Below are positions 328 through 63,244 of a DNA stretch of 64,000 nucleotides, in pieces. Position 1 is the first letter of the stretch. Every line of letters starts with the position of its first letter. Origin of the DNA: Euglena gracilis (taxonomy: Eukaryota); the NCBI GenBank assembly GCA_039621445.1, contig CP154954.1:23014954-23078953 (forward strand), read 5' to 3'. The notes beneath the pieces are model-generated. The model saw only the letters and a list, made by a program, of their open reading frames with translations. It had not been told where the DNA came from and did no database searches. A program made the position numbers and the translations under genes.

Positions 328-1314
328 TCATTCCCACTTCTCCGTGAACCACTGGTACCGCTGTCGACGATACCTCCTCTTGCACGCCTCGGAGAGTCCA
401 CGTTCATCTCCACTTCTCCTGCGGGCTCGGGACGATGCTCCTTCATCTCCTGGGGGCATGTCCTTCAGGGTCTCTTCCTGGAATCTTCGGTACTGGAGCA
501 AGCACGCCCGGACTGGCCAACGCAATGGCCCAGTCGGCTGCATATGGCCCGCCTGCTGGTCCCAGATCTCGAAGAACCGGGTTCCTTCCTCGAAGATGAT
601 GAACTTCACTGTCATCTTCTGCAGCATTGGCCACCATGTTGTTGTACGCCACTCTGGTGCAATCAGCACCATCTCCTGCACCTGGTCCGCGATGATCTTG
701 AGGATAACTTGATTCATCAACGTCCACGGTGGGTTGGCCCATATCCTTTCTCTTGACCATGTCTTCGCAAATGCATTGTCTTCCTTCGTCCAGAACTTGG
801 GGAATCTTGCATTTTCCCATGATGCAAATGCTTCTTGCACACTTCCTTGCTGAATGTTGAACTTGTCCAGGATCAGGTCGATGAATTCCCAGCGCACGGC
901 GTACTCCTCGGAGATGTACTACCTTTTGATTCTTCTTCCCCTTCCACTTGGTCTTGGCAGGGTCTCTGGCTCTTCCACCTCGTAGTACTCCTCCTCTGCA
1001 GCTGGTCCTGATTCTGGATCTCCTGGATGTGGTTGATTCTCCATCACCACATTTCTCCTCCTGAATGGCTGCAATGGCACTTCCGGTTCTTCAGCTGCAC
1101 CTTCATAGTTTGGAGCTGGACTTCTTGATTCTTCTTCTTCTTCTTGTCCATCCCACACTGTCAATGCAGATCTCCAGCCCTCTTCTGGAAGTCGGACAAT
1201 CCATCTGCTCCAGCTCCAATCTGTCACTTCCTGCACTTTCAAGTGATCTTCTTCCGGCCTCCAACTGACATTCATCCTTCTGGGCTTGGCATTCTGGTAT
1301 TCTGACTCTGGCAT
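328..1314 (-). pseudogene. N6-adenine (Dam/DIRS-type) DNA methyltransferase with acidic N-terminal extension; one in-frame TAG at 919-921
   Basis: EEYAVRW..VQEAFASWENARFPKFWT..DNAFAKTWS..IWANPPW..KIIADQ..LIAPEW..WWPML matches the DxFAS..N / AF..W / NPP(F/W) / P.W..W pattern; ORFs 919..1314 and 328..897 share a frame. Confidence 0.85.
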
Positions 1315-17270: not shown

Positions 17271-17419
17271 GCCCGGGGGCGGTACGGTAGAATGGTTGGG
17301 TTGTTGGTTGTCAGTTGGTAAGGGTAACCGCTTGAGTATTGTCTGGCAAAAATACTTCTGCGGAAAGAAAGAATGATAAGAATCAATTGAAAAATGAAAA
17401 GAAAACAACATGGGTTTCC

Positions 17420-18026: not shown

Positions 18027-18031
18027 GATTA

Positions 18032-21595: not shown

Positions 21596-21838
21596 AGTTT
21601 TTGTGCGGGGGTGTTCATTTTGTGGACATTCTTCCATTATATACCGGCCCAAAGGCAATGGTAGAGCAGAGGTAGCCTTGAATGCCGTCGTGAATATGCT
21701 TCCCCTTTCACTGGCTGACTCGCGCAGCAAGGGGATATCAGTTCTACCATGGTATTTGTTTTATATCAATACCCTACCAGGGTTGGTTTTGCTTCACTCG
21801 CCCTGTAAATTCATTTTCGGACGGGACCCTCCGGCCAC
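21596..21838 (+). pseudogene. pol: D1 integrase core fragment (inside the inverted segment)
   Basis: YRPKGNGRAE..SPCKFIFGRDPPA, matches 38820-39057. Confidence 0.85.
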
Positions 21839-30213: not shown

Positions 30214-30267
30214 AAAATCATGTACAGCCCAGTTTTTTGAATCAGAAATATTTACACCGTTTTCCTC

Positions 30268-30330
30268 ACAGGGGGGAGAGACACGGCCATGGGCAGCCCC
30301 CCCTTTCTCAAACTGCCCCTGGCCCCCCTA
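30268..30330 (-). promoter_or_regulatory. Putative gag stop-codon readthrough signal (UAG-G plus pseudoknot)
   Basis: TAG followed by 38 sense codons in frame to the MTase ATG; GGCCAGGGGCAG pairs with CTGCCCATGGCC, and loop AGGGGGG pairs with downstream CCCCCCT. Confidence 0.65.
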
Positions 30331-33300
30331 TTGGGCCCCAGGGGGAGAAGAGGTGGGCCCACCCTCCTTTGACCATGCACCCCCCTTGCCTGAGGAATTT
30401 CGCTGAGTGGCTGGCTGCCCTTTACCCTTGGGCTGCCCCTTGCCTTTTCCATTATTTTGCCAAAATTCCTTAGATTTAGCAAGGGCCTCACTCAGCGGTT
30501 TATCACACTCATAAAAATAATGTCCACACTCCCCACAGTTGAAGCATGGATACAAGGACCTGCCCATACCCGATGCCTGCGGGGTCCAGGTCTGCCCCCC
30601 CTTGCCTTGCCGGGCTGGGGGTGCTGGACTTTGGGTTCGCGACCATGGAACTGCTGCTGATCGCGAAGACGAAGAAGGGGACCTGCCCCGTGGGGCTGGC
30701 TGGGCTGCCCCCTTATCGCCCTTCGCAGCTGGCTGTGGGGCAGACTTTGAGGTGTGACCCTGCCCCCCAGCTGCTGGTGCTGAAACAGATGTTCGGGACA
30801 CCGGGGGGGTCTGGCCTTTCTCCAACGCCTGTATTTTCCCCGAGCCTTTTGTTGTCGATTTGCTGAATAATCTGGGAAAATGGTGCTGATTCAAAGCCAA
30901 ATCCTGCTTCTCCCGAAGAGCTAACTTGCCCTCGGCAAAAGCAAACATTTCCTCAACAGTCATTAGTTGTTCCACCAATTCGGCGTTGAGGAAATTTTCC
31001 ATTCCCTGCAATTTCCTTCCATTTACGGCTGTTAATTTCAGTGCCTCCTCCGAAGAAACTGAAATAAAAAGGCAAATGGCACCAGGGCTTTTGATAACCA
31101 CTTTCCGTGGATCAATCCCCCCAGTGATCTGGCTCACACTCCTTTTAATCCCATCCACCGTGGGATTTGGTATCCCTGTGAGCCTGACAATGGGTTGTTT
31201 TTCCGGGCTCGGTTATACTCCTCTTCTATGCAAAACGTGCTTAAAAAAGGAGGAATTCTTTCCAAGAATAATCTCCGAGCCTCCCCGGCTGTGGCATCCT
31301 TAACATGGTGCCAGGCACTGCAAAATTTGATCCCAAATTCGTGCAGATCAGCCCGGGTTATTTTTCCTTCGTTTACCATGGTTACCTCTTGCCATATTTT
31401 CCGAGCCGTTAGCCCCTTACTCGAGGCATAACGGTTCTGGAACTGGGCCAATATGGTGGGGTAACTTAATTTAGCTCCATTCAACCGATAGTGCCTGATT
31501 TCCTCCCTTAATCTGCGTCCTAAACATGCCTCAAAAACCTGCAGCTTTTGCAAATCAGAATACGGTTTCCCTGATGTCAACCTATCCCAGTAAAGATTCC
31601 AATCTACTTCAAAAACTTGCCAGGAAATGCTGCCCGATTCATCAAAATAGGGCTTAGCACCTCCCTGCAAAATTTCAAAAGGTACTGGGTCGCCAATAAA
31701 AGGAAAACCCAACCCGTTACCTGGGTTGGCTGCAGCCCCCCCTGTCCCGATAGGCCCAATCGAGAAAGCAGGGGCTGCAGAAACATGTGGGGGGACACAC
31801 AATGACACCAAAGAAACCACTGGCGTATCTTGCATGTCCTCCAAAACAAAGCCCCCCTCAGCAACTAAGGGAGGGGAAATGTTTGAACCTGCAGATTTAT
31901 TTTGTAGAACATTCAGATCTGAAAAAGCTGGGTCAGCACTGGGCACCGTGCTGGCCAGAGGGCTGGAAGGCTGCCCCAGGGGCTGCTGCTGTCCAGCCGA
32001 CGGCAGGCCCAGCCCCCTTGGCAGCCCGTGAGCAGGCAGCGCCTGGCCTGCTGGCTGGCCAAGTTTCTGGGCTAGCTGGACGACGGGCTGCTGGGCCAGC
32101 TGCTGCCCAGGCTGTGGCAGCTCCACTGGGTGCAGGGGCTGCTGGCTGCCCTGCCGCAGCCACCACATGTCAGAAATTTTCTGCAACACTCCTCTCGGTT
32201 CTGCACTTGGGTGTACGGGTCCATTTTTTTGTAAATCCTGCAGCACTTTCTGTAACTCGAAAGTGTTCCCCCCAACTTTTGCAAGTCCCCGCCTTAATTC
32301 CTCCACCAGCCCACCAAATTCTTTCTCCTGGGAAAAAATCTGCTGATAAACACTCTGAAAATTCTGCTGACAATCCGTCAACAGTTTTTGCATTTCTGAG
32401 TGTCGTTTCCCTGCTTCATCTGAAATATTCTGGTGCAGTTTTTGAATACCCCCACCAAAACCATGGAGGGCTGTATTCATCGCTGAGTTTTGTTCACCCA
32501 GCTGGCGAACATAATCGGTGAACTGCTGAAGCTGCTGAGCCTGGCCCTGGACCGTACCTCGCAGCGACACCAGGTCAGCCTGAACTTCAATGATTCTGGC
32601 AGCGACAACGGCCAGCTCCTGGAGAGTTTCTGCCTCCCCCCCCTGAGCTGGCTGGGCGGCTTTAAAATTCTCAGCGAACCGCTGAAAATTTTCAAGCACG
32701 AGATCCTTAATTGGCAAGGCAGCCACCTGATTTTGCACTTGTTTCAAAATTTCCTGTGGCAGGTTGTCCAAAATTCGTAAAAACTCCTGCCTCAGTGCCA
32801 AAAACTGATCACGGCTCGAAGAAAACTGCTGGGCCAGTTTTTCCTCAAAACTTTTTTCCTGCCCGACAAAAAGTTCGAGTGCCTGTGCGTCTATTTTTTG
32901 CACAGAAATTTGCACCTGGGCCTCACATTTTTTCTCAAAAAGTTCAAAAATATGGAGGCAGTCAGCCCTGGCCGTTTCTTCGATTCGTGCAGCCATGTGC
33001 TCTACCAGGTGGACGTCGACTGCAGGGGGTTGTTGCTGCTGCTGCTGCTGCTGCAGAACCCACTCTTCGTTGGCTTTTTGCAAAGCCAAAACCCGAAAAG
33101 TCAGGTGCTGCACAGCCCACTGGAGGTCTCTGTTACTTTGTAAAAATTGCCCCCAGGGGTCTTCAAATCCTGAAGATTTTGTGAACCCCCCTGGGGGTGG
33201 CTTCGGAACTTTCATAGGCTGGGGGTTGGACCTCCTCCTCACCCCCCTCGATGAAAATATGAGGAGGCGGGGGGGCTGCAGCAGCTGCTGGCTGACCGTG

Positions 33301-34036: not shown

Positions 34037-35141
34037 TGTTTCACACCCGTGCTGCCATGTCCCTCGGCAGCACTGGGGTGAAGCGGAAACCCCCGCCCTG
34101 GGCCAGTTTCATGCGTAGGATCGTTTTTTGGCTCCTCGAGCCGACTTGTGTCAGAAATTTTTTCCCATTCTGGCCCCGCCCTGTGGCCGAAACTGGGCCA
34201 TCATTTCCAAGGAGGAACCTCCCAGTGGACCCTCCCCGACCCCTGAGGGGGGTGTCACTGGGATCTCCAAGGGGGGTGCCTTTGGGGTTTTAACCCCTCC
34301 CTGCTCAGCTGAACCAGTGAGAGCCAACACCCCCCCCCCCCTGGATGTCATTTCTCACAGTTTCTGGGCCAAAAAGGGGGTTTTGGGGTGAAAATTGGCC
34401 TGTGGTTGCCTGAGTTGAGGAGTCCCACCCCCCTGCCCCTTTTCCCACAGATGAGGTGGGGGGAAGACAAACCTCACCTTCTTCAATTGAGCTTTCTTGA
34501 TTGATTTGTTGTCCTTCCATTTGCAATTCCAATTGTAAATCCAAGTTCAATGATTGAATGTAATTGGTCGTAATTGACACAACAAATGCAATGGTGAAAC
34601 AAGTGAAGAGGAATTCCCTGTGAAAGAAAATATGATTTTGATGCCCCTGATGGGCAGTTAAATTTCGGATTGAGTGCGCTGATTCCTAAGCGCTGTCAAA
34701 TCCCAAATCCTAGCCCATTGCATCAAAATCAACCAACCCAAGTCAAAATCAAGGTTTCCCCCCTTGATTTTGATAAATTATGCTGAATTCCATCATTATT
34801 GAGCTTTGCAAACCCCTGCAAAAACTCCAGGAACTCAGGCGCCAATCTCTTAAAATTCTGTTCCAAGCGCTTGCAAGCGCTCTCACCAAATCCAACATTT
34901 TCCCTTAAAACCAAAGGAAAAATGCGTAAAAAGCTAAACATTATGCTAAATAGACCCAAAATCACCCTTACCTAGCATCACTCAATCTCTCTCCTTGCAC
35001 AACCAAACCATGGGCGCATTAGGAGAGGGAATTTTAATGGAAACCTTTAGAAAGCCTTAAAATTAGAGCTAAACCGCCCTTAAAAAGGCCTTCTAAAAAG
35101 GAAAAACTCCGCCGCCCGGCGGTCGACCTCAAAAGGTCGTC
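34037..35141 (-). repeat. Element B 5' LTR (~1105 bp)
   Basis: Matches 21839-22673 plus 18032-18307; ends CA; terminal T lost or mutated. Confidence 0.92.
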
Positions 35142-38100
35142 TGTGGGCTTGCAAGCGGCGGCACCCGGCTTTGCTTTTGCCGGGGCCTTCGGACTTCCGG
35201 TTTCTGTAGTGTCCAATGGCCGCCGTTCGGCGTCGCGCTTGCTCGCCCAGGTTCGTGGTGACGCTTGGGACGGGGGTCTTCTCCCCGAAACCGAACGTCG
35301 TTGTCCTTCAGCAGGGGTTTCCCGAGCTGAGGGTCGACCTACACGCTCATTCGCGGTACCCGTGGGTTTCCCAGGGGCAGCCGTGGGGGATGCTGTTGGT
35401 TCAGGTGTGGCCGGCGCGCTTCGCGCTGGTTGAGCCTGCGGTGGAGGCATGTACGTCCACTCAGCCTGTTTTTCAGGTGCGGGTGTACGTGTGCCTTGAC
35501 GCTTCGGTGCAGTGATTGTGGCTGTGCCCTGAGGTGCCTGTTCAACCCGTGCCTCGGGTGGCGCTACCGGCGCTGATACAGGTTCATCCTGCACTGGCAC
35601 GGTTGGTGTTGTCTCCACTTCCAATGCTGTCTGTTCGCCTTCCGTCCGTGTCGCTTCCGACACCGGCGGTGGCGCTGCCGATGGGGGAGGTTCATCCTCC
35701 ACCATGGCTGCAGGATCAGGTGTTTCTTCCGCCGGCTGGGCAGTTTCCGCCGCAGCTGTGGAAGAACTGACCGCAGTGCCACGTGGAGTGACAACTGCGA
35801 TCAGTGACCGCAAAACACCGAATACGCGTCCGCCCAGCGAGGTGCGCCGCTCAGGTCCTTCACCTGAAGTGGGCTCCTCCCTGGAAACATGGAGCTTGAG
35901 GAGAAGTACCTCAGGCGTGTGGGGTACTGTCTCCCGCGGGTTTTCCCGCGGAGGGGTCGGTACGCTTGTCGCACTCAGTGAGGTTGGTGTCTGTGGTACA
36001 GGTGTCATTTCACCTGCCGGCGATCCTGGGCGCTGGGCACGTTCTGCCACAGTGTCCAGCATCACGACAGATGGGCTACGGGTTTCCCGTGCCGGAGGTT
36101 TCGCTGACTGAGGTTAATCATCGGCCGTTGGGGCCGCTTCCTCTTCCTCCTCGGCTTCTGGAGGGGATTTCTCTCTGTGCAGATGTGCTGCAGAACGCGT
36201 GTCATTTCCGCTCCTGTAGCACCCTCGTGCATATGACAGGCGATAAAAGGTTATACTTTCACTCCTGTCAGAGTTGGGGTATGGGGGCGGCCATGACGCT
36301 CTTACCCAGCTTCCGGGTTGATGTTCTGGCTCGTCCTCGCTGATCATGCAGAGGTCTTCCCACTGTATTCGACGGTTGCAGCTCATGCAGTATTCTCCGG
36401 TGTCTTCCTGGAACGCGGGCAGCGGCAAAACATAGCGTGGTTGTTTTTCTACGTTTGCCTTATAAAAGGCTTCGAAGTCTTCCCAGACCAGGATATTCCC
36501 GAACTTGGTGTCCATGTGCCTCTGGAGACCAATTTCGGCCTCCTGCTAGTCCGGCCGCAGGTGCATCCTGCGTCGGTCTGGATCATTGTGTCTGCCGTCC
36601 ACCTCGGTGTATCCCCGGGGTAGACACTTCCTATTGATATCCATATCAGTGTTCATGAATTCCAGGAAAAAAATGTAAACCTCCAGGACGTAGGTAATCA
36701 ACGCCCTGTGCCAGTAGCGTTGCAGCGAAAATGTTTTCTGCCGGTGCTGTTTCAGCACCTTTCGGTCTTGCGCTCCGATCTGAGGATTCCGGCACTGTTG
36801 CAGGAGAAACCTCCTGGTCGGCTGGCTGCCGGCATTCTTCGGCAGTCTGAGGCGGTTATCCGCGTTCTCCGAAACCCCAGAAGTCAACGATGTGTACTTC
36901 TTTGCAAAACTGGCATTCCAGTTTGTACCGTTGGAGGTACGCGAGCAGTGTTCCGACGGAATACATGTGGTTGAAGATTTCGGTCAACTGTGCTACGAAC
37001 GTTTCGTCGTCCGGACATATTCCCAAACAGTCAATATACGTCTGACCGTTTCGGTCGTTAAAGATGCCGAAGTTCTGGCAGGGGTATCCCAACCAGAACC
37101 ACAGCTCCCAGAAACCCGACATCCGGTCCAGGAGTATTCATCCGAATGAGGGTATCCCTCAAACGCATTAAGTTCGGAACTGTAGAAGGATCCTTTTCAG
37201 TGATCGTACGTACGATTCTGCACCACTTCGACCACCGCATCCAGTGGTCGGTGGATCACTTCCTTGCGCGTGTGTACTTCTGGAGATCCTCGTCGATTTT
37301 AGACAAGATCTCCTGAAGGTAGATGAACACCAGGGAAACGTCGTAATCCTTCGTTTTCGAAGTTTCGGCGGCTTTCCCGCCTTTTCCTGCTGGAGGTCCG
37401 GCAGATTTTCCGCCTTTGCCTGGAGCTGGCCAAGCGGCCTTTCCGCCTTTGCCAGGTGGGGCTTTCCCACCTTTCTCTGGCCTTTTCCTTTTCCCTTACC
37501 CTTGCCCTTTCATTTGAGCGCTGTGGGTACTGTCAGACGTGGCGGAAGGGTTTCCTTCCGCGTGGCGTCTTGGCATATGGTCAGGTATGGCAGGGTGGGG
37601 TTGAGGTGGATACACGTACTGATCTCGTGGCACTGGTGCCTCCTGGGGATAATCCCCAGAGACGGTGTACTGAGCCACATGCTCCTGCGCGGGATAATCC
37701 CGCCGGGGCATGCGCTCAGGGGATCGAAAAACACTTTCTTTCACGCGTGGTCCGGTCACTCGGACAGGTGCTTCCCCTGTCTCTTCCTCGGGTATTCTGG
37801 GGAGTGAGCACGGAAATGCACGGTGTAAGTGCCAACTGACGGTACCTGCGGTGCTACCTGTGGCGGGACTTCCGCGCCCTGGTCACGCATGGTAATGTCC
37901 GCCGCGACTCCCGATGTGTCCGAGTCGCTGTAATACGCCGAACCGGTCATCATCGCCTGGGCGCACATACACCACAAGGCTGGAGGGGTATTCGCGATTG
38001 TCAGTGTCTGACGGCAGTGGTCATCGCACAACACCTGGGTGAGGTGGTCTGGTGCCGGGTTTGCGCTCATACGCATAACCCGGTTCATCGTCTCCGCCGT

Positions 38101-38418
38101 GCAATGGAGCATCACACCCGCATACGGTGGGAGGCTATGAGGGCCTGATGGCTGAGATGACCACGCTTCCGCGGGCATCTGTGTCACCCTGGTACTGCTG
38201 CTGGCTTCAGGGTTTCCCTGAGCCGCAGTCCGTGCAGGTGGCTGCGTACCGTATTGGTCCGCATATTGGTCAGGTTGACGGTGAGTGGTGGGGTGGTAAG
38301 GCGGCCCTCCGCCTGGATTCCTTACATCGGGCAGCATGATACCGCCCGGGGGCGGTACGGTGGGATGGTTGGGTTGTTGGTTGTCAGTTGGTAAGGGTAA
38401 CCGCTTGAGTATTGTCTG

Positions 38419-39722
38419 CCGCAGGTACTGCACAACCTTGAGCAGAAAAAGAGCTGTACTCACGCTGTTTGTGGATAGCGCATAGGTGTCAAATTTGTCA
38501 AGCGGTAAAACCACGCAGAGGTACCCCCCCATGGTACGATGGACTTTTTCCCCGTACCCCCTGACATTTTTACATCCCTCTGCATGGATTTCCTGGAATT
38601 AGAACCGTTCAAAGGAACGGACGACAAAATTAACGATTACTTTTTTGTTGTTAAATGCACGATGAGTGGGTACATTGTAGCCACTCCATGCCAGAAGTCA
38701 GGGTTGACTGCCCAAAGTTTGGCAGTTATATTTTTAGAAAAGCGTCAGCTTATTGGGTCTACCAAATGAAATTGTGAGTGATCAAGGCCATTTGATTTCC
38801 TGAAGGGTTTTCCAAACTTTGTGCGGTTTCTTCGGAATTGAGCAACATTTTTCCATTATATACCGGCCCAAAGGCAATGGTAGAGCAGAGGCAGCCGTGA
38901 AATCCGTCGTGAATATGCTTCCCCTTTCACTGGCTGACTCGCGCAGCAACTGGATATCAGTTCCAGCATGGTCTCTGTTTTTTATCAATACCCTACCAGG
39001 GTTGGTTTTGCTTCACTCGCCCTATAAATTAGTTTTCGGACGGGACCCTCCGGCCATAGGGGATGTCCCTTCGGAGAGACCCGCCCGAACGAGTGTCAGT
39101 TGCGAGACGTGGTTTGCGGAAGTAGAAAATCTACGTTCTGCAGTCCAGAAGCGAGTCACTGATGTTCATTCAACTAAAAGGAAATCGTTTTTGCAGAACT
39201 TCAAAGTCATCTATGTATAGTCCCGTTGACCGCGTGTGGGTTCGGAATAGCCGTACTCGCATGCAATCTTCCAAGCTGGACCCCCGCTCTGCCCCTGTGA
39301 AATCATAGAAAGACTAGGTACCAGCAGGCGATACAAGGTTGCATTACCGAATGGTGTTGAGGACGTTCATATGGACGTCATCAAGCCACACCTGTCACCG
39401 CCGGATGGGAAACCTATCCCGTGCCTACACCTCAAGCCCCGTTCCAGATTACCTGAGACGGACGACTTTGTAGTCGATAAAATTATCGATCACAAAATCG
39501 ACAAAGGTATGCACCTTTGGAAGGTCCATGTATCCGAGGAGGACACTTGGGAGCCAGCAACCGGTTTTGTTGGGTATGTCCAGCAAGATTGGAAGCTGTG
39601 GAACAAGAAGCATAACATTGATGCTACCATGACAAGTTTTTGAGAACGCATGGGAAACCCATGTTGTTTTCTTTTCTTTTTTGCATTGATTCTTATCATT
39701 CTTTCTTTCCGCAGAAGTTTTT
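38419..39722 (+). pseudogene. pol: D2 integrase and chromodomain, internally inverted
   Basis: RRYCTTL..RCQICQAVKP, SLCMDFLEL, IVSDQG, NGRAE, DDFVVDKIIDH..EEDTWEPA. Confidence 0.9.
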
Positions 39723-39724
39723 TT

Positions 39725-40920
39725 ACCACACCAACGAAAGTAGTTTGGGGGCCCCAGGGTGCCGTGGTTGTGATAGCACAAAATTACATCATCAAACAGG
39801 TCCTGGGGGATACAATATTTGTAACCCCATTCATTTCGAAAACCATCCGTACAGGTGAAAGTGCGTAATTGTCCAGCACTTCGCCATTACGAAGTCTTCT
39901 GACAATGGTGTCATACACCGGATCACGACTATAATCCCATTCGCGAAAGAACAGTGGGGAGGGGGACTTCGTGCGGGTAATACGCCGGGGTCCGGACGTG
40001 CTTCCACGTCGGCGCCTTCCACGCACTGGTGCGCCAAGGAATAGTTGTGAAAAGGGGGGAAAAAATCCAAAAGATTGTCCGCAGTGTCGTTTCGACGTGC
40101 GTACTCGTCGGCTTCCTGACTTCCATGAAAAGACGCGTCCCCTTATCCGGGTTCCCAGGGTAATACCAATTGTCCCGGCTGAGCGGATCCGCTACTTTCT
40201 GTGTGTGACCAGGGGTATAATTTACCACAAGGTTGAATTGACCCAAGGACTCATGCCACCTGCATCGCCTTCCGACCGATGACATGGCATTGTTCAAATC
40301 CTCGGTGTACCAGTAATGGAGACTCTCATGACGGGCCTTGAGGAGGATCTGGACGAGGCTGCTGGCGACCCAGATTTGAAATTTCTGGAGTATAATTAGG
40401 ATTGCGTAGGTTTCCTTCGCGCGCATACTCCACTTGACCTGACCTTTACTGTCGACGCCCGGTAACTTTCTTCTGAAGAAAGCCACAGGTCGGAGTTCAT
40501 TCGCCGCGTTTTGCTGGCTAAGAACTCCGCCAACAGCGTGATCGCTGCTGTCGACTTCCAGTACGTATGGTTTGTAAGGGTCCGCGATTTCGAGGACAAC
40601 ATTCTCCAAAAGCAAAACCTTGATTTCTTCAAGGGCCTCGCGCACTTGGTCATTCCAAATGGTGTTGTCAACAGCCCGGTTTTTGAGCTGTTTGGTGAGG
40701 GGCACCGCACTTTTCGCGAAGTCCCTTATGTATCGCGTAATATTCGTATAAAAACAAAAATCCTTTAAGGCGAGTAATCGTTTTGATTACCTCTGGGGTC
40801 CATTTCTTAATGGCTTCGAGCTTGCTCCGAGCGGCTTTCCGCTGTCCTATGCTGAGGATGTTACCGCCAAATTTTATAAGTTCGCGAACCAAATGCATTT
40901 TCGCACCTTTCGCGAAAGGA
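39725..40920 (-). pseudogene. pol: D2 RT C-terminus, RNase H and start of integrase Zn domain
   Basis: LEVDSSDHAVGGVL, PVAFF, ADPLSR, CYHNHG. Confidence 0.88.
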
Positions 40921-40929
40921 CATGTTTTT

Positions 40930-41270
40930 GGAAAGCAAATGTAAACACATACACGAAAGTTGGGTGAACCACTCCGGTTCCGGAATGATTGGTATGAGAA
41001 TAAGTCCACGGGCTTCATCCCGGAGTATTTTCTCAACCACACATTCAATAAGTTTTGAGGGGGTGCATCCATAACACCGTATCACCCCAAAACTTATCAA
41101 ATTTATTGGGGTGTTGTGACCAATGACGTGGCAAAAGGGCATGCACATTGGATTAGAAGGCATCAATTTCCAATGCCAAATCAAAGGTAACAGCCAATGT
41201 CGCGATTTCGGAAAACCATCGTTATAAGATGCGATATTGACCAAATTGAAAGCACTCCATACGCGTTCGG
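40930..41270 (-). pseudogene. D2 N6-MTase-like domain between PR and RT (frameshifted)
   Basis: FDKFWGDTVLWMHP(P)..KLIECVVEKILRDEARGLILIPIIPEPEWF. Confidence 0.72.
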
Positions 41271-42429
41271 CGTATTCATGTTTGAATATTCACCCGTTTT
41301 CCGGGTGGAAAAGAAGGAACACAATGAATGGATCCGCATACGGGCTGACTTCCACTACCTCCAGGGTTAATCCCAAGGGAGTTTGGACAGGTTGGGGTAT
41401 TCCCCGTTTCGCATCAAATTCATACCCAGTGTGATCGGGCGGAATGACGCTTTTCGCGTTTCCAAACAACGAGGATAATACGCGTCGTTGGAGTACTTGG
41501 TGTATCTCCGCGCATTGCGGGCTACAACCAAGTGTATCATGAGGTGTGGATTCCGTTTTCGGAGTTGCGATTAGCGTTGGATTTTGAACTAAGCATCCAC
41601 AATTGCAATCCGATTGGGTGGAAATTCTCCTGCAGTGCACACATTGGAAGGAAGTGTGATGTTGTGACGGGTGTGTGTGTAAGTGGGTGTCGTTGGCATT
41701 AGTCGGTGAGTCTTGTACTGGTTTTTGGCTTTCGTCTTGTAACCCAGTGAAACGGCGGGGGTACCGCTACTCGCTTTGCCTTCCTCATGTGGAACGATTG
41801 GGTAGGGGGGAGGCTTTCTCCGTACCCCGAGTGTGGAAAACGGTTGTTGGTGTGGTGGATAACGGTGTTGCAATTGTGGGTAACAGTGTTGGAAGAGTGG
41901 TGGTCATCATAGTGGATGCCAACGGGGATGTGGTTTGGGTGACACTGAAGGGTTGGGTGCTGTCCGCAAACCGTGGGAGTGGCAATCCACAACCAATCGG
42001 TCGGCGTAAAAATGGGTATCCCAAAAATACGTCAGACCCGTCAATTCGAGCACACATCACAAATGACCACCGCACATGGGGGTGTTGTCCGCGGTTCTGA
42101 TTTTGATCGGTTTCTTGGCGCTTACCAAGAGAGGGGTCGGTATCAACCCCAACCGAAAGAGCAGTGCAATGCGACAACCACTGGCAATTAAAATTTAAAC
42201 TTTGGTGGAAAAATTTTGAATGCGGATTTCTGCTTGGACGAGTAATTCCATTGGTGGTACGCAAAGTGAAGGGTATGGCGGAAATACATTTTCATGCCAA
42301 CATTTACATGAACCCTTTCCTGCTTTGCTCAGCATTCCGAGCAGAAATGTGGAGTGGGCGGTAGGGGACCCGAAATAATTCCGGGTACCGTCCGTGAAGG
42401 CGGATGGGTAGGGGGGGCAAGGTTTAAAC

Positions 42430-53760: not shown

Positions 53761-53989
53761 TTAGGTAGGAACTGGTCACCCCGGCCCTCCCTGCCCATCG
53801 GTCTTTTTGGTCGGTACCCGGAAAATTTTCGGGTCCCCCACTCCGCGTCAAATTTTTGCTTGGAAGGTTGAGCAAAGTAAGCAAAACGTCATGGAACAGC
53901 TGGCGCGACAACAAATTTACACCCGACCCTTCGCTTTGCGTACCCCCCATGGTACTTTTGGTCCAGGCGAAAATCACAACGCAAAATGT

Positions 53990-54320
53990 TTGTGCACAAG
54001 CCAAAATTTTAGTCGACACAGGGTGTCGAATCCCCCTTCTTTTCGGCAAAGGACTTATACTCACCCCCCTCTTGGTTCATGCAAAGAATCCCATCAAAAT
54101 TATAACTGCAGACAACAGCCACGTGTGCGGTGGTGAAATGGGATGCATTTTGGACATAGTCCTCCCCATTATCCCCAAGCACCACACACACACCCCACAA
54201 TTCTAAACTTTTCCTGGTACTTGGGTATTCGAGGCGAACATCGCCGGTTCTGACTTCATACTCGGTTTTACATTCCTACAGCAACACCGATTGGTGGTGG
54301 ATTGTCCTTCGCACGGTTTG
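53990..54320 (+). pseudogene. pol: E aspartic protease
   Basis: ILVDTGC..IITADNS..SDFILGFTFL. Confidence 0.8.
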
Positions 54321-55001
54321 CGCACTACCCCCCGCACACACACCACACCCCCAAACGTGTTCCCCGTGACGTCACCCAGGACGTCCCCCCGCATTTCCAC
54401 AACGTTTTCCACAATCGAAAACACCGTTTCCAACCCTAGGGGTAAAGAGAAAGCTGCCCCCCTACCCATCGCACTTTTACCGCCCGTCTCCCATGCGGTA
54501 GGGAAAGCCAGGAATTTTCCCCCCCTACACCTGGTAGTGGTACCTATACACTTGGTACGGATTTAATACATAACCAAAAGGTACACAGCGGTGGTACCAT
54601 GGGTGATACACCCATCAGTACACCTGGTAGTTATTTAAGGCTCACAAATACACTTGGCAGCTTTTCGCAATTCGCGAAAGTGAATCAAGCACCACAGTGC
54701 AAAGGCATAGCCTCCGTTTTCGGATTTGCGTATAGCGCTCCCCATGCGCCTATGGCGCTCTCCAACGCCCCCGCGCATATCGCGCTTGCCGCACATAGTG
54801 CGAATCCCGCGCATATCGCGCATTCCGCACTATCGCGCATCACTGATGACCAGGTATATGCCCAACCGACCCATACCCCACCTGGATCGAGTCCTATGGA
54901 CATGTGTGTGGATGATTCACAACTCCTTTGTTCTGTGTTACAGCGTGTTCCCCCCCTTTCAGGATGTTGAGCAGATCGCCGAGTACACCAAGGATACCTG
55001 A

Positions 55002-55430
55002 AATACGTTTCAATTTGGTGAATACCAAATATTGAAACATTGGTTTTCAAAAGTCGCCGATATGGCGGATTTTTTTGATTTGACCTTGGAAATTGATGCA
55101 TTGTCTTACAACGCGCATTCGCGTTTACCGCGACATTGGTCGCAAATTCTAATGCCTTTGATAAGATTTGGGGAGACACTATCCTACGGATGCATCCGCC
55201 CCTAAAACTTATCCCGCTTGTTGTAGGTAAGATTTTCAAGGATCAAGCGCGAGGGGCATTACTTGTTCCTGTGAATCCCGAAGCGGAATGGTTTCAAAAT
55301 TCGACTTATGTCACATTTTATTGGTAAGGCCTACCAAACGATGTACCTCTATTCGAGGATTTCCGTGGAGTGGTACTACCACTTTTTCAAGAAATCATTT
55401 TCCGTGTTTGTTTCTTTGATGCTTTCAATG
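55002..55430 (+). pseudogene. E N6-MTase-like domain between PR and RT (one frameshift, one stop)
   Basis: GEYQI..EIDALSYNAHSRLPRHWS/NSNAFDKIWGDTILRMHPPLKLIPLVVGKIFKDQARGALLVP..EWF..PLFE..FRVCFF aligns end to end with the ORF at 328-918. Confidence 0.78.
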
Positions 55431-55630
55431 TTTCTCAATCTCCACCCCTGAATGTTACTGTGTTGGATCATACCGACCATGTGGGAGCCGATACGGCTTT
55501 TGTCCATAATGCCGATAGGCATCACCGTTCGGGACCCCCTATGGTCGATATGACCCATAAACAGGTTTCCGCTGTCATTGAAAGTGCAGGACAGCACCCA
55601 AGTTCAGCAGAATTTTGTACGCACATCAGT

Positions 55631-58600
55631 CGCGAATTTTCTGAGGTTTTGGAAAATCCTGTTTACGCTTGCGATATAAGTCCCGCTATCCGCGGACCTT
55701 TTGGAGGTTGTAAGATTAAGCTTAAGGAAGGCGCAAAGCCAATGCATCGGAAATTTTTCCACTGTTCAGGAGAAAGAGAGATAGCTCTCAATGAAATGAT
55801 TGAAAAGCTCATAGAGCGGAAGTGGATCATCCCCTCCAAAAGTGAATGGACCTCTCAAGCTTTTGTTTCCTAAGCCCCAGGCCCATCAGGTCAGAAAACG
55901 TGGAGGCTAGTACTGGATTATCGGTACTTAAATTCACAAGCTAAGGATGACCCATTCCCGTTACATCTAATAGAGGACCTCATCGCAAAACAAGCGGATA
56001 ACCGCTTCTGGTCAATTTTCGACCTTGAGGATGGCTTCCACCAAATGCATCTGGATCCTGATTCGCAAGCCTATACGGCTTTTGCAACATCCAAAGGTGC
56101 TTACCAATGGACAGTTTTACCAATGGGTGTTAAGAATGGACCAGAAATGTTTCAGCGCATGATCCAATGGGTCTTACAGGATCTACCGTTTGCGCTGGTA
56201 TACATTGATGATGTTTTGGTTGGTACCCCCCCTCGTTCAGCGAATACACACGAAAATATTCTGGACATTCACTATCGTGATGTTCGCGCGGTAATATCCG
56301 CATTTCTCAAGCATAGACTTTTTGTCAAAGGTGCTAAAATGCACTTATTTCGCGAAACGATAAAGTGTTGCGGTCACATTCTGAATACTGGCCAACGCCG
56401 AGCGGCGCCTAGCAAACTAGAGGCCATTAAGAAATGGACACCCAACGTCACCAAGACCATAACCAATTTAAAGGATCTTTGGGTTTAGCCCAATATTACG
56501 CGATTTACATGAAAGATTTTGCGAAAATCGCGGTACCTCTGACGAGGCAACTCAAAAATCGCGCACCCGAGAGTACAAAAATCAAATGGGACGCATATAT
56601 GCGTGAAGTTCTAGAGAGCATTAAAAAGCTAATGCTTGAAAATGTTGTACTCGACATCGCGGATCCCTACAAGCCTTACGTGCTAGAAGTCGATAGCAGC
56701 GATTATACTATAGGCGGAGTTCTAAGCCAGCATAACGCGGCTAACAAATTACGCCCTGTAGCATTCTTCAGTAGAAAGCTACAAGGTGAAGAGAGCAAAG
56801 GACAAGTCAAATGGAGTATCCGTGAGAATGAAACGTACACAATCGTACTTATTTTGCAAAAATTCCGTAGCTGGGTCGCCAGTTCCTTGGGAAAAATACT
56901 GGTGTTGACTGATCATGAGAGTCTTCAACACTGGTATACCGGGGATCTGAACAAAGCCATGTCATCCGTAGGCCGAAGATGCCGATGGCATAAATTTTAA
57001 AGTCAATTCAACCTAGTGTATACCCCTGGCCATACACAGAAAGTAGCAGACCCGCTTAGTCGAGCACCCTGGCATTACCCCGGTAACCCGGATGAAGGTG
57101 AGGCCACCTTTCATGGCAGCCAAGAGGCTGATGAATATGCACGTCGATATGACGCAGCCGACGATATGTTGGATTATTTTCCCGTTTCATCGATTTTTCG
57201 TTCGTTGCCAGTCTCTCTTATACGGTTGAGAAGGCGACGAGGCCGCACTCCTGGCCCCCGTCGCATTACGCGATCTGAATCTCCTTCCCCCCTCTTCTTT
57301 CGTGAATGGGATTATTAACATGACCCTGTATATTGCACGACAGTGCACAGACTGCGCAATGGCGAGGCTGTGCATAATTATTCCCTTTCCCCTTTACGGT
57401 TGGTTTACCGTGATGATGCGGGATATAAATATTGTATACCCCGTGACTTGGTTGATGAAGTACTTTTGTGTTATCACAACCAAGATCACCCTGGGGTCCC
57501 CAAACTTCTTTCTTTGGTGGGTCGCAGGTATTGTACAACCCTGAAAGAAAAAGAGTTGCCTTCGCGCTGCTTGAAAATTTCGCAACGGTGCCAAGTTTGT
57601 CGCGAATTTTCTGGTCTTTTGGAAAATCCTGTTTACGCTTGCGACATAGATCCCGCTATCCCCGGACCTTTTGGAGTTTGTAAGATTGAGCTTATGGAAG
57701 GCGCAAAGCAAATGCATCGGAAATTTTTCCGCTGTTCAGGAGAAAGAGAGATAGCTCTCAATGAAATGATTGAAAAGCTCATAGAGCGGAAGTGGATCAT
57801 CCCTTCCAAAAGTGAATGGACCTCCCAAGCTTTTGTGGTTCCTAAGCCCCCAGACCCATCAGGTCAGAAAAAGTGGAGGCTAGTACTGGATTATCGATAC
57901 TTAAATTCACAAACTAAGGATGACCCATTCCCGTTACATCTAATAGAGGACCTCATCGCAAAACAAGCGGATAACCGCTTCTGGTCAATTTTCGACCTGG
58001 AGGATGGTTTCACCAAATGCATCTGGATCCCGATTCGCAAGCCTGTACGGCTTTTGTAACATCCAAAGGTGTTTACCAATGGACAGTTTTACCAATGGGT
58101 GTTAAGAATGGACCAGCAACGTTTCAGCGCATGATCCAATGGGTCTTACGGGATTTACCGTTTGCGCTGGTATACATTGATGATGTTTTGGTTGGTACCC
58201 CCCCTCCTTCAGCGAATACACGCGACAGTATTCTCGACATTCACTATCGTGATGTTCACGCGGTATTAGCCGCATTTCTCAAGCATAGTCTTTTTGTCAA
58301 AGTGCTAAAATGCACTTTTTTCGCGAAACGATAAAGTTTTTCGGTCACATTCTGAATAATGGCCAACGCCGAGCGGCGCGTAGCAAACTAGAGGCCATTA
58401 AGAAATGGACACCCGAGGTCATCAAGACCATAACTAATTTGAAAGGTTTTTTGGGATTTGCCCAATATTACGCGATTTACATGAAAGATTTCGCGAAAAT
58501 CGCGGTACCTCTGACGGGGCAACTCAAAAATCGCGCACCCGAGAGTACAAAAATCAAATGGGACGCAAATATTCGTGAAGCTCTAGAGACCATTAAAAAG

Positions 58601-61600
58601 CTAATGCTTGAAAATGTCGTACTCGACATCGCGGATCCCTACAAGCCTTACGTGCTAGAAGTCGATAGCAGCGATTATACTATAGGCGGAGTTCTAAGCC
58701 AGCATAACGCGGCTAACAAATTACGCCCTGTAGCATTCTTCAGTAGAAAGCTACAAGGTGAAGAGAGCAAAGGACAAGTCAAATGGAGTATCCGTGAGAA
58801 TGAAACGTACGCAATCGTACTTATTTTGCAAAAATTCCGTAGCTGGGTCGCCAGTTCCTTGGTAAAAATACTGGTGTTGACTGATCATGAGAGTCTTCAA
58901 CACTGGTATACCGAGGATCTGAACAAGGCCATGTTATCCGTATGCCGAAGATGCCGATGGCATGAATTTTTAAGCCAATTCAACCTAGTGTATACCCCTG
59001 GCCATACACAGAAAGTAGCAGACCCGCTTAGTCGAGCACCGTGGCATTACCCCGGTAACCCGGATGAAGGTGAGGCCACCTTTCGTGGCAGCCAAGAGGC
59101 TGATGAATATGCACGTCGATATGACGCAGCCGACGATATGTTAGATTATTTTCCCGTTTCATCGATTTTTCGTTCATTGCCAGTCCCTCTTATACGGTGG
59201 AGAAGGCGACGAGGCCGCACTCCTGGCCCCCGTCGCATTACGCGATCTGAATCTCCTTCCCCCCTCTTCTTTCGTGAATGGGATTATTAACATGACCCTG
59301 TATATAGCACGACAGTGCACAGACTGCGCAATGGCGAGGCTGTACATAATTATTCCCTTTCCCCTTTACGGTTGGTTTACCGTGATGATGCGTGATATAA
59401 ATATTGTATACCCCGTGACTTGGTTGATGAAGTACTTTTGTGTTATCACAACCAAGATCACCCTGGGGTCCCCAAACTTCTTTCTTTGTTGGGTCGCAGG
59501 TATTGTACAACCCTGAAAGAAAAAGAGTTGCCTTCGCGCTGCTTGAAAATTTCGCAACGGTGCCAAGTTTGTCGCGAATTTTCTGGTCTTTTGGAAAATC
59601 CTGTTTACGCTTGCGATATAGATCCCGCTATCCCCGGACCTTTTGGAGTTTGTAAGATTGAGCTTATGGAAGGCGCAAAGCCAATGCATCGGAAATTTTT
59701 CCGCTGTTCAGGAGAAAGAGAGATAGCTCTCAATGAAATGATTGAAAAGCTCATAGAGCGGAAGTGGATCATCCCTTCCAAAAGTGAATGGACCTCCCAA
59801 GCTTTTGTGGTTCCTAAGCCCCCAGACCCATCAGGTCAGAAAAAGTGGAGGCTAGCACTGGATTATCGGTACTTAAATTCACAAACCAAGGATGACCCAT
59901 TCCCGTTACCTCTAATAGAGGACCTCATCGCAAAACAAGCGGATAACCGCTTCTGGTCAATTTTCGACCTGGAGGATGGTTTCCACCAAATGCATCTGGA
60001 TCCCGATTCGCAAGCCTATACGGCTTTTGTAACATCCAAAGGTGTTTACCAATGGACAGTTTTACCAATGGGTGTTAAGAATGGACCAGCAATGTTTCAG
60101 CGCATGATCCAATGGGTCTTACGGGATTTACCGTTTGCGCTGGTATACATTGATGATGTTTTGGTTGGTACCCCCCTCGTTCAGCGAATACACACGAGAA
60201 TATTCTCGACATTCACTATCGTGATGTTAGTGCGGTATTAGCCGCATTTCTCAAGCATAGACTTTTTGTCAAAGTGCTAAAATGCACTTATTTCGCGAAA
60301 CGATAAAGTTTCGCGGTCACATTCTCAATAATGGCCAACGCCGAGCGGCGCCTAGCAAACTAGAGGCCATTAAGAAATGGACACCCGAGGTCATCAAGAC
60401 CATAACCACTTTGAAAGGATTTTTGGGATTTGCCCAATATTACGCGATTTACATGAAAGATTTCGCGAAAATCGCGGTACCTCTGACGAGGCAACTCAAA
60501 AATCGCGCACCCGAGAGTACAAAAATCAAATGGGACGCAGATATGCGTGAAGCTCTAGAGAGCATTAAAAAGCTAATGCTTGAAAATGTCGTACTCGACA
60601 TCGCGGATCCCTACAAGCCTTACGTGCTAGAAGTCGATAGCAGCGATTATACTATAGGCGGAGTTCTAAGCCAGCATAACGCGGCTAACAAACTACGCCC
60701 TGTAGCATTCTTCAGTAGAAAGCTACAAGGTGAGGAGAGCAAAGGACAAGTCCAATGGAGTATCCGTGAGAATGAAACGTACGCAATCGTACTTATTTTG
60801 CAAATATTCTGTAGCTGGGTCGCCAGTTCCTTGGTACAAATACTGGTGTTGACTGATCATGAGAGTCTTCAACACTGGTATACCGAGGATCTGAACAAAG
60901 CCATGTCATCCGTAGGCCGAAGATGCCGATGGCATGAATTTTTAAGCCAATTCAACCTAGTGTATACCCCTGGCCATACACAGAAAGTAGCAGACCCGCT
61001 TAGTCGAGCGCCCTGGCATTACCCCGGTAACCCGGATGAAGGTGAGGCCACCTTTCATGGCAGCCAAGAGGCTGATGAATATGCACGTCGATATGACGCA
61101 GCCGACGATATGTTGGATTATTTTCCCGTTTCATCGATTTTTCGTTCGTTGCCAGTCTCTCTTATACGGTGGAGAAGGCGACGAGGCCGCACTCCTGGCC
61201 CCCGTCGCATTACGCGATCTGAATCTCCTTCCCCCCTCTTCTTTCGTGAATGGGATTATTAACATGACCCTGTATATAGCACGACAGTGCACAGACTGCG
61301 CAATGGCGAGGCTGTACATAATTATTCCCTTTCCCCTTTACGGTTGGTTTACCGTGATGATGCGTGATATAAATATTGTATACCCCGTGACTTGGTTGAT
61401 GAAGTACTTTTGTGTTACCACAACCAAGATCACCCTGTGGTCCCCAAACTTCTTTCTTTGGTGGGTCGCAGGTATTGTACAACCCTGAAAGAAAAAGAGT
61501 TGCCTTCGCGCTGCTTGAAAATTTCGCAACGGTGCCAAGTTTGTCGCAAATTTTCTGGTCTTTTGGAATATCCTGTTTACGCTTGCGATATAGATCCCGC

Positions 61601-63244
61601 TATCCCCGGACCTTTTGAAGTTTGTAAGATTGAGCTTATGGAAGGCGCAAAGCAAATGCATCGGAAATTTTTCCGCTGTTCAGGAAAAAGAGAGATAGCT
61701 CTCAATGAAATGATTGAAAAGCTCATAGAGCGGAAGTGGATCATCCCTTCCAAAAGTGAATGGACCTCCCAAGCTTTTGTGGTCTCTAAGCCCCCAGACC
61801 CATCAGGTCAGAAAAAGTGGAGGCTAGCACTGGATTATCGGTACTTAAATTCACAAACTAAGGATGACCATTCCCGTTACCTCTAATAGAGGACCTCATC
61901 GCAAAACAAGCGGATAACCGCTTCTGGTCAATTTTCGACCTGGAGGATGGTTTCCACCAAATGCATCTGGATCCCGATTTGCAAGCCTATACGGCTTTTG
62001 TAACATCCAAAGGTGTTTACCAATGGACAGTTTTACCAATGGGTGTTAAGAATGGACCAGCAATGTTTCAGCGCATGATCCAATGGGTCTTACGGGATTT
62101 ACCGTTTGCGCTGGTATACATTGATGATGTTTTGGTTGGTACCCCCCCTCCTTCAGCGAATACACACGAGAATATTCTCGACATTCACTATCGTGATGTT
62201 CGCGCGGTATTAGCCGCATTTCTCAAGCATAGACTTTTTGTCAAAGTGCTAAAATGCACTTATTTCGCGAAACGATGAAGTTTTTCGGTCACATTCTTAA
62301 TAATGGCCAACGCCGAGCGGCGCCTAGCAAACTAGAGGCCATTAAGAAATGGACACCCGAGGTCATCAAGACCATAACCATTTGAAAGGATCTTTGGGAT
62401 TAGCCCAATATTCCGCGATTTACATGAAAGATTTCGCGAAAATCGCGGTTCCTCTGACGAGGCAACTCAAAAATCACGCACCTGAGAATAAAAAAATCAA
62501 ATGGGACGCAGATATGCGTGAAGCTCTAGAGAGCATTAAAAAGCTAATGCTTGAAAATGTCGTACTCGACATCGCGGATCCCTACAAGCCTTACGTGCTA
62601 GAAGTCGATAGCAGCGATTATACTATAGGCGGAGTTCTAAGCCAGCATAACGCGGCTAACAAATTACGCCCTGTAGCATTCTTCAGTAGAAAGCTACAAG
62701 GTGAAGAGAGCAAAGGACAAGTCCAATGGAGTATCCGTGAGAATGAAACGTACGCAATCGTACTTACTTTGCAAAAATTCCGTAGCTGGGTCGCCAGTTC
62801 CTTGGTACAAATACTGGTGTTGACTGATCATGAGAGTCTTCAACATTGGTATACCGAGGATCTGAACAAAGCCATGTCATCCGTAGGCCGAAGATGCCGA
62901 TGGCATGAATTTTTAAGCCAATTCAACCTAGTGTATACCCCTGGCCATACACAGAAAGTAGCAGACCCGCTTAGTCGAGCGCCCTGGCATTACCCCGGTA
63001 ACCCCGATGAAGGTGAGGACACCTTTCATGGCAGCCAAGAGGCTGATGAATATGCACGTCGATATGACGCAGCCGACGATATGTCGGATTATTTTCCCGT
63101 TTCATCGATTTTTCGTTCGTTGCCAGTCCCTCTTATACGGTGGAGAAGGCGACGAGGCCGCACTCCTGGCCCCCGTCGCATTACGCGATCTGAATCTCCT
63201 TCCCCCCTCTTCTTTCGTGAATGGGATTATTAACATGACCCTGT
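55631..63244 (+). repeat. pol: Tandem array of a ~1972-bp RT-RNaseH-integrase Zn-finger unit, ~3.9 copies (starts 55631, 57601, 59573, 61545)
   Basis: Each unit has DYRYLN, FDLEDGF, LPMGVKN, YIDD, VDSSDYTIGG, TDHESL; complete units end HNQDH..CQVC. Confidence 0.96.

Follow-up and report, generated by a model that had tools for sequence, protein, structure and literature searches.

A Dam-like domain with a His-Pro-Pro-Leu motif in the Pol region of a broken gypsy-type retrotransposon of Euglena gracilis

Results

Extent and reading frames of the Dam-like domain

We analysed a stretch of 64,000 nucleotides of the Euglena gracilis genome (assembly GCA_039621445.1, contig CP154954.1, positions 23,014,954 to 23,078,953 of the forward strand), referred to below as the window and numbered from its first letter. 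At 50-57 kb, the window contains a copy of a Ty3/gypsy-type retrotransposon whose Pol coding region carries a Dam-like methyltransferase-fold domain, of the type found as "MT" in DIRS elements and as "DAM" in long terminal repeat (LTR) retrotransposons (DAM-LTR). The domain comprises 150 residues in three pieces at 54966..55432 on the plus strand, as delimited by a family hidden Markov model (HMM, see below), hmmalign and tblastn. In the place of the catalytic motif IV, (D/N)PP(Y/F/W), the codons CAT CCG CCC CTA at 55193..55204 (+) specify His-Pro-Pro-Leu (HPPL). This tetrapeptide aligns with ANPPW in the product of an open reading frame (ORF) near the start of the window (328..918, minus strand) and with LHPPL in P0005, the single relative found when a read-through translation with TAA as X was searched against a collection of 5.8 billion proteins. 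P0005 is an intact ORF of 1208 residues and is 72% identical to the window copy.

Piece A (55002-55142) lies in the same frame as the upstream Pol sequence, and is followed by piece B (55142-55324) and piece C (55328-55432). The true start of the domain is near 54966, about 36 nt before 55002 and ahead of an in-frame TGA at 54999-55001. ORFs and tblastn with P0005 trace the Pol frame through 54384-54524 and 55002-55142, then after a shift of one base on to 56473, with a second shift near 56461; across the domain itself the tblastn match passes from frame 3 to frame 2. The domain therefore has three lesions: the TGA (54999-55001), a frameshift of 1 nt (about 55142-55150) and a TAA (55325-55327). 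The original prediction, made from the letters of the window alone, had described the domain as hidden by frameshifts; the interruption is real, and it consists of only one frameshift plus two in-frame stops. Two further residues conserved in the family are changed (F46L and W75R). With these two stops, the frameshift, both substitutions, loss of the integrase and tandem amplification of the reverse transcriptase (RT)-RNase H region, the 50-57 kb copy is dead.

Homology to the Dam family

The ORF at 328..918 encodes a Dam-family domain with the canonical motif ANPPW. It matched Pfam PF05869 at E 6.6e-11 with 42.6 bits, above the curated gathering score of 28.1, and matched the family HMM at E 2.8e-28. 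Piece B aligned with its product in BLASTP (E 1e-6, 19/60 identical), and the pairs NAFDKIW/NAFAKTW, MHPP/ANPP and KIFKDQ/KIIADQ all fall inside this one alignment. The pairs IDALS/QEAFAS and RLPRHW/RFPKFW were found in a weak direct alignment (E 0.10) and aligned via P0005, whose own alignment with the 328-918 product (E 5e-11, 46/161 identical) also includes RVCFF/RACLL. Of the block-for-block correspondence that had been proposed between the two proteins, six of the seven blocks were recovered by BLASTP, directly or via P0005, and the remaining one, GEYQI/EEYAV, was not backed by any alignment obtained. The homology of the domain to the Dam-family ORF was confirmed by BLASTP, by the P0005 alignment and by the family HMM.

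P0005 matched PF05869 at E 7.8e-4 with 19.6 bits, under the gathering score. A phmmer search with its 168-residue domain against 1.84 billion representatives returned 482 proteins at E ≤ 1e-3, 91 of them at E ≤ 1e-10, including P0018 (7.4e-28), P0025 (1.5e-22) and P0036 (6.7e-20), which in turn scored 37.9, 39.7 and 29.5 bits on PF05869. Forty of the best 150 matches, namely the 36 with at least 360 residues and four close short ones, were scanned with Pfam; Dam was reported at E ≤ 1e-3 in 31/40, and the gathering score was reached in 18/40. On the family HMM built from the best 150 matches, the three pieces of the window copy are collinear, A covering HMM positions 6-27 (E 0.017), B covering 24-87 (E 8.9e-21) and C covering 90-118 (E 3.9e-4). 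Aligned with hmmalign, they correspond to positions 13-61, 59-120 and 123-156 of P0005, with identities of 28/49, 44/62 and 26/34, respectively. The ESM Atlas (scores 0.89-0.90) offered a lead only, Dam being present on 14% of the members in one cluster, and a comparison by sequence between solved structures and the family profile gave only a chance match (E 1.6). We regard it as nearly certain that the region is a Dam-family domain inside a gypsy-type Pol.

Predicted fold of the domain

The domain of P0005, that is, of the intact relative and not of the broken window copy, was modelled with AlphaFold2 from a 63-sequence alignment, giving a mean predicted local distance difference test score (pLDDT) of 93.5 and a predicted template modelling score (pTM) of 0.87. 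Among 48,161 chains compared with this model using VIA-align, 14 reached Z ≥ 8; every one is a class I methyltransferase, the majority being N6-adenine-specific. The top matches were PCIF1 (Z 10.8, 128 residues, rmsd 2.8), PH1948 (9.9), METTL5 (9.0), KsgA (8.6) and T4 Dam (8.2), and M.TaqI and EcoDam (both 7.8) followed under Z 8; sequence identity to these fold matches was 7-15%. Values of Z 7-8 are common with this program, and here the matches are uniform in fold and cover residues 6-168. The best rows of Foldseek were PCIF1, KsgA/DIMT1, Dot1L and COMT. In the model, His-Pro-Pro follows the strand 73-76, which is the location of motif IV in such enzymes. Judged from the model, the domain contains all of a miniature Rossmann-type methyltransferase core, and its nearest neighbours are N6-adenine enzymes. 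The amino-methyltransferase fold that had been proposed for the domain is thus borne out by the model and by the uniformly class I list from VIA-align, without a Foldseek match at E ≤ 1e-3.

HPPL as a trait of the lineage

A second, diverged copy of the domain (D2) lies at 40966..41251 on the minus strand, as identified by tblastn and by the family HMM (E 2.9e-11 and 6e-9), with 71-73% DNA identity to the 50-57 kb copy. It reads ATG CAC CCC (Met-His-Pro) at 41068-41060, followed by indels, in agreement with the earlier statement that MHP(P) recurs in D2 near 41060. Both window copies thus have Met-His-Pro, at a DNA divergence of about 27%, and their His codons differ (CAT and CAC). Over 92 domain codons, these two copies gave dN 0.23 and dS 2.2, the latter saturated, and hence dN/dS of about 0.10, a rough value that is nevertheless far below 1; it describes the two window copies only. 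Two scans of metagenome contigs found no DNA of relatives. P0005 retains the top-conserved residues D44, F46, W58, A64, F65, W69, L74, W75, P78, P79, K89, P102, W109 and R147, among which D44 and F46 form the motif-I-like D-x-F.

As HPPL is present in the intact ORF of P0005, as the His codons differ, as dN/dS is about 0.10 and as the other conserved columns are kept, HPPL is, on these sequence comparisons, a trait of the lineage under purifying selection and not a product of decay. The view that the change from Asn to His is a family trait is therefore supported, and the residue after Pro-Pro is Leu, so the aromatic residue is absent as had been stated. An NPPF motif in intact copies had been named as the observation that would contradict this view; the closest intact copy, P0005, has HPPL.

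The family is extremely abundant, genomic contigs of run X1 containing 7120 pieces that match 54400-56000. At 103/1601 positions, the majority of run X1 departs from the window copy. The majority has TGG at 54999-55001 and, in nearly all depth, T at 55187, which restores Trp at W75. Among the 40 of these 103 positions listed, there was no variant in the HPP codons (55193-55201) and no insertion at the frameshift site. G at 55326 was found in nearly all depth, with no change of 55327 among the same 40 positions, so that the triplet 55325-55327 apparently reads TGA, still a stop, where relatives have Trp. Either the abundant subfamily was amplified already broken, which would fit the tandem array described below, or the list of 40 of the 103 positions is incomplete in this respect. 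Reading of TGA as Trp was considered and rejected, since in-frame TGAs of Pol remnants in the window align with N, T, V, G, K and gaps, never with W. Read counts in three RNA runs were 8, 2 and 27, with no read at ≥ 99%, which is too few to judge expression.

Motif variation and domain order among relatives

The column of the catalytic Asn was compared in 139 rows drawn from the 150 matches most similar to the His-bearing query, so that the shares below are not family-wide frequencies. Asn was present in 95 rows, His in 25, Cys in 11, Phe in 3, Ala in 2, and Tyr, Leu and Ser in 1 each, i.e. 44/139 rows had a residue other than Asn. The residue after Pro-Pro was aromatic in 98/143 rows. In a 75-row tree built without the motif columns, P0005 fell into a 12-row clade (99% SH-aLRT) with the motifs NPPI, NPPV, NPPL, HPPF, HPMF, YPPI and NPHY, and its sisters in that clade mostly have Asn (NPPI/V/L). 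A separate 8-row clade with 96% support consists of His rows throughout. On the best 109-row tree, at least 10 changes involving His were counted, unsupported branches included.

An aromatic residue after Pro-Pro was present in 6/25 His rows versus 74/95 Asn rows (raw Fisher p 1e-6, kinship ignored). D44 was present in 16/19 His rows versus 88/89 Asn rows and F46 in 15/20 versus 89/89; A64 and F65 were also less conserved in His rows, and W69, K89, P102 and R147 were conserved in both groups. These differences in the alignment give a hint of relaxed catalysis in the His rows.

Cys replaces the catalytic Asn, as CPPF, in a further group of relatives (P0028, P0034, P0035, P0039, P0048, P0050, P0059 and others; 11/139 rows). 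Cys rows form a 6-row clade at 99% support, and the aromatic residue is kept in 10/11 of the Cys rows.

Among the 40 relatives scanned with Pfam, RT was present in 16, of which 13 had RVT_1. The domain precedes RVT_1 in 10 of these 13 and follows RT in 3 scanned relatives, two in a DIRS-like order and one between RNase H and integrase. Three copia-type polyproteins (P0100, P0111 and P0135) have the domain between integrase and RVT_2. A phage-integrase domain, which in DIRS sits in a separate ORF, was absent from all 40 scanned relatives.

Structure of the element at 50-57 kb

Upstream of the domain, a retropepsin core with the motifs D-T-G and I-L-G and an in-frame TAA (54204-54206) is located at 53955..54293 (+). 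It aligned in BLASTP with the protease part of P0003, a gypsy Pol of the window (E 6e-5, DTG and ILG aligned), and its matches to Pfam Peptidase_A3 (E 0.038) and A3B (E 0.088) were both under the cut-off. The start of the protease-to-DAM linker at 54384..54524 (+) matched residues 2-48 of P0005 in tblastn with 77% identity. Residues 49-283 of P0005 had no match in the 50-57 kb copy, where only 478 nt stand against these ~235 residues; part of this linker is thus missing or unrecognisable here.

Downstream, the DAM-to-RT linker (55433..55873, +; tblastn) ends in a conserved RT N-terminal stretch. Residues 331-750 of P0005 matched 55142-56473 with 72% identity in tblastn, and the linker into RT is also present in the close relatives P0006 and P0013. 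RT is encoded at 55892..56380 (+; RVT_1, PF00078, E 3.8e-24, residues 7-169 of ORF 55874-56488), and a Ty3/gypsy-type RNase H at 56587..56991 (+; PF17919 E 1.6e-21 and PF17917 E 2.7e-21, ORF 56431-57000). The position of the domain between protease and RT, as originally proposed, was confirmed by the retropepsin upstream (BLASTP), by RVT_1 and RNase H downstream (Pfam) and by tblastn with P0005. In P0005, Pfam identified RVT_1, RT_RNaseH and Integrase_H2C2 after the domain. Because P0005 continues into the integrase H2C2 zinc finger, the element belongs with those using a DDE integrase and not with DIRS.

The remainder of the 50-57 kb element is replaced by a tandem array at 55629..63244 (+) of about 3.9 units of 1972 bp, as detected by self-BLAST (95-97% identity, spacing 1970-1973) and by tblastn with P0005. 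A unit begins at the N-terminus of RT, includes RNase H and extends slightly beyond the C-x-x-C of the integrase zinc finger, where the sequence returns to the start of RT; there is no integrase core after the array. All four units have TAA (57316, 59288, 61260 and 63231) where P0005 has Ser.

The second copy and other Dam-related features of the window

The element containing D2 occupies 39.7-44.6 kb on the minus strand, with 71-74% DNA identity to the 50-57 kb copy. Its region 40864-41289 matched the family HMM at E 2.9e-11. It lacks ~975 bp comprising the C-terminus of the domain and RT, before RNase H at 39929-40786.

A conserved four-cysteine (Cys4) motif, Q-C-x-x-C-x-R-I-S...C-G-C, is present between protease and Dam-like domain in the second copy (41293-41766, -) and, among intact relatives, in P0005 (residues ~120-145) and P0008, and this stretch is missing from the 50-57 kb copy. 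The motif may represent a zinc-binding module belonging with the Dam-like domain.

The canonical 328-918 ORF (-) lies behind an in-frame TAG at 919-921 and ~2 kb downstream of a gypsy ORF at 3067-5361 (-) encoding integrase and chromodomain, with a GC- and Pro-rich low-complexity stretch between the two. It may either form the 3' terminal part of that chromovirus or begin a separate protease-DAM-RT element that the edge of the window truncates; a search among longer proteins gave no relative of the 328-918 ORF.

A 283-residue ORF at 29476-30327 (-) has the C5 cytosine methyltransferase-like motifs DLFAGTG, SPPC and ENP and a weak Pfam DNA_methylase match under the cut-off (E 0.0017). It is in frame with the preceding ORF 30328-31212 (-), a single stop separating them. 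Immediately downstream of it follows the Pol of a gypsy chromovirus at 25078-29232 (-), an intact ORF of 1384 residues with RT, RNase H, integrase and chromodomain. This may be a chromovirus carrying a DNA methyltransferase (DNMT).

Nested insertions of other high-copy elements are evident at 11739-22672 and 34037-39731 from several long pairs of dispersed and inverted repeats with 92-97% identity, for example 11739-13466 with 20784-19058 and 13927-15754 with 35142-36945. A 922-residue ORF at 13198-15966 (-) had no Pfam match.

Discussion

Our preferred interpretation, which we consider probable, is that the 50-57 kb element is what remains of a Ty3/gypsy-type DAM-LTR retrotransposon, truncated and dead, and that the HPPL domain has most likely been kept in its lineage as a module of Pol with little or no adenine methylation. 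The Pol polyprotein is ordered as protease, linker, Dam-like domain of ~150 residues, linker, RT, RNase H and integrase, the last as seen in intact relatives. The Dam-like domain would derive from the phage PF05869 lineage, also the source of the DIRS "MT" domain. Made within Pol, it would act in cis on the nucleic acid of its own element, inside the particle or at integration, in line with the proposal for the canonical DAM-LTR and DIRS domains. In (D/N)PP(Y/F/W) enzymes, the first residue of motif IV holds the target amino group and the aromatic residue stacks on the flipped base. As both the Asn and the stacking aromatic residue are gone, the HPPL form most likely performs no efficient adenine methylation. 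The HPPL domain may instead be retained in Pol to bind a cofactor or nucleic acid or to serve a structural purpose, as a pseudo-methyltransferase like METTL14, which has EPPL and is a catalytically dead partner, a precedent for xPPL in a retained non-catalytic methyltransferase fold. From this comparison of motifs, we incline, by a modest degree, to the view that the HPPL form is non-catalytic or strongly altered.

Several observations weigh against this interpretation. Pfam reported no Dam match on the window pieces or on the read-through of B and C with TAA as X, and even P0005 does not attain the gathering score of PF05869 (19.6 versus 28.1 bits). Foldseek found no match at E ≤ 1e-3 in the PDB, the best being PCIF1 at 1.3e-3. 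The window self-BLAST detected no direct repeat pair flanking 50-63 kb, and neither LTRs nor an integrase of this copy are in the window; as the copy is truncated, the absence of an LTR pair says little. With regard to function, an exocyclic amine could still donate a hydrogen bond to the His, and purifying selection suits an active enzyme equally well as a binding module. As D-x-F is kept in P0005, cofactor binding may be intact. Canonical domains showed no activity in E. coli according to the accessible text of a recent preprint (bioRxiv 10.64898/2026.05.21.726589), and "inactive" may therefore not separate HPP from NPP. The selection of rows most similar to a His-bearing query also bears on the residue shares given above, and an independent-pairs test of whether His goes together with absence of the aromatic residue found one pair on supported branches, which gives it no power.

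An alternative that we hold to be rather unlikely is that the HPPL domain is still an active S-adenosylmethionine (SAM)-dependent methyltransferase in which His has replaced Asn/Asp as hydrogen-bonding partner or base. Its target may have changed as well, for example to cytosine N4, a modified base, RNA or the RNA:DNA hybrid formed during reverse transcription. The purifying selection (dN/dS ~0.10), the retention in P0005 of D44, F46 and all other top-conserved columns, and a fold nearest to RNA and DNA N6-adenine enzymes would agree with activity. So would the history of the motif: the repeated origin of His (at least 10 changes on the 109-row tree, unsupported branches included) together with the supported 8-row His clade resembles the outcome of selection for His more than that of chance losses of Asn. 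However, the stacking aromatic residue has been lost too, in favour of Leu, and the His rows are less conserved at D44, F46, A64 and F65. A precedent for a methyltransferase with HPPY, HPPF, HPPW or HPPL was not found among the papers listed by a literature search, and canonical relatives are described in the accessible preprint text as giving no N6-methyladenine (6mA) in E. coli (bioRxiv 10.64898/2026.05.21.726589).

At the other extreme, HPP could be one decay step of a captured DAM domain that is no longer needed, the domain being a functionless relic. Both window copies are broken, and the apparent TGA at 55325-55327 in run X1, together with no frameshift insertion among the 40 of 103 positions listed, allows that an abundant subfamily carries a broken domain. 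Against this, an intact ORF of 1208 residues carries the domain, two lineages keep His with different codons at dN/dS ~0.10, and the structural core residues are all kept in P0005, whose AlphaFold2 model is confident. The relic explanation is improbable and is already disfavoured for the lineage. That the resemblance to methyltransferases is due to chance or composition, the region being an ordinary Pol linker, could be argued from the lack of a Pfam match on the window pieces and of a sequence match to solved structures, but is already refuted, with a negligible residual probability, by the family HMM match of piece B (E 8.9e-21), by the chain of homology to Dam members reaching the gathering score and by the methyltransferase fold (Z 8-11), the 14 chains at Z ≥ 8 being class I enzymes without exception.

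More broadly, and only as a tentative and rather doubtful proposal, retrotransposon Dam domains may have repeatedly exchanged Asn for His (and for Cys in another clade) under purifying selection, such that the His forms would represent a selected new function and not failed copies of a 6mA writer. This function could be a methyltransferase with new chemistry or a new target, or a cofactor-sensing or nucleic-acid-binding pseudo-enzyme needed by Pol between protease and RT. Retrotransposon Dam-like domains are thought to write 6mA on new copies, which would then land in permissive chromatin. The loss of both hallmark catalytic residues in a lineage that is still conserved indicates that such a domain can be kept for a non-canonical role, and the lineage supplies natural HPP-type and NPPF-type pairs for comparing what Dam-like domains do. 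As it falls under the Pfam cut-off, the HPPL lineage would be missed by domain screens.

Comparison with known systems

The kind of domain described here is already known from DIRS and from DAM-LTR elements. The Pol of DIRS elements has the order RT-RH-MT, and the function of MT was stated, in the accessible text, to "still remain[s] unknown" (PMC3266345). The presence of Dam-like methyltransferases in DIRS was noted by de Mendoza et al. 2018 (PMC5890265), where the consulted portion also describes the capture of cytosine methyltransferases by LINE, DIRS and gypsy elements. In the accessible text of a May 2026 preprint, Fernandez-Moreno et al. reported 10,030 eukaryotic DAM proteins, mostly borne by transposable elements, and claimed the first DAM domains in non-DIRS LTR elements, with five DAM-LTR lineages (Chlorophyta chromovirus-like, Chloro-Ochrophyta, Ichthyosporea, Pyropia and Euglena) and "EpiLTRs" that combine DAM, DNMT and chromodomain (bioRxiv 10.64898/2026.05.21.726589). 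According to the same text, "almost all" DAMs have Asn-Pro-Pro as their catalytic triplet, canonical eukaryotic DAMs gave no gain of 6mA in E. coli, and the model for canonical DAM domains is that the cDNA or the RNA:DNA hybrid is marked with 6mA. The original prediction, whose interpretation held in every point that could be checked, had left two options for the function, an altered specificity or an inactive nucleic-acid-binding derivative. It had not recognised the domain as this known one, i.e. the "MT" of DIRS (PMC3266345) and the DAM of DAM-LTR.

The 50-57 kb element shares with DAM-LTR elements, as far as these are described in the accessible preprint text, a prokaryote/phage-like Dam domain within the Pol of Ty3/gypsy-type (also chromovirus-type) LTR elements, membership in the eukaryotic retrotransposon DAM family, and a mini fold with a central sheet flanked by helices; the DNMT-like and chromodomain-bearing elements of the window likewise recall the "EpiLTR" theme. 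It differs in having His-Pro-Pro-Leu under purifying selection in place of the near-universal Asn-Pro-Pro, and the order protease-Cys4-DAM-RT is not stated in the accessible text of the preprint. With the MT of DIRS1-like elements it shares the domain family and the location in Pol (accessible text of PMC3266345 and PMC5890265), but DIRS has RT-RH-MT and a tyrosine recombinase, whereas the domain here precedes RT and P0005 has an integrase H2C2 zinc finger. The phage-type Dam of PF05869 is homologous via the family and likewise combines a D-x-F resembling motif I with a later motif IV that comes after strand 4; the HPPL lineage differs in scoring under the gathering score and in lacking the catalytic Asn and the aromatic residue. 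PCIF1, METTL5, M.TaqI and T4 Dam (NPPF/NPPY) share the class I fold and also carry motif IV where strand 4 ends, but are cellular enzymes rather than Pol domains and show no detectable sequence similarity. SymbioLINE-Dnmt, SymbioDIRS-Dnmt and KnitGypsy-Dnmt3, in the accessible text of PMC5890265, likewise represent capture of a DNA methyltransferase by retroelements and the idea of cDNA marking, with an enzyme of another family and fold subclass, for which the window has a candidate at 29476-30327 (-). Neither the His motif nor its conservation or recurrence is mentioned in the accessible text of the DAM-LTR preprint (bioRxiv 10.64898/2026.05.21.726589). What appears to be new compared with these systems is an HPPL motif under purifying selection, the recurrent loss of Asn (44/139 rows, 25 of them with His) and the protease-(Cys4)-DAM-RT layout.

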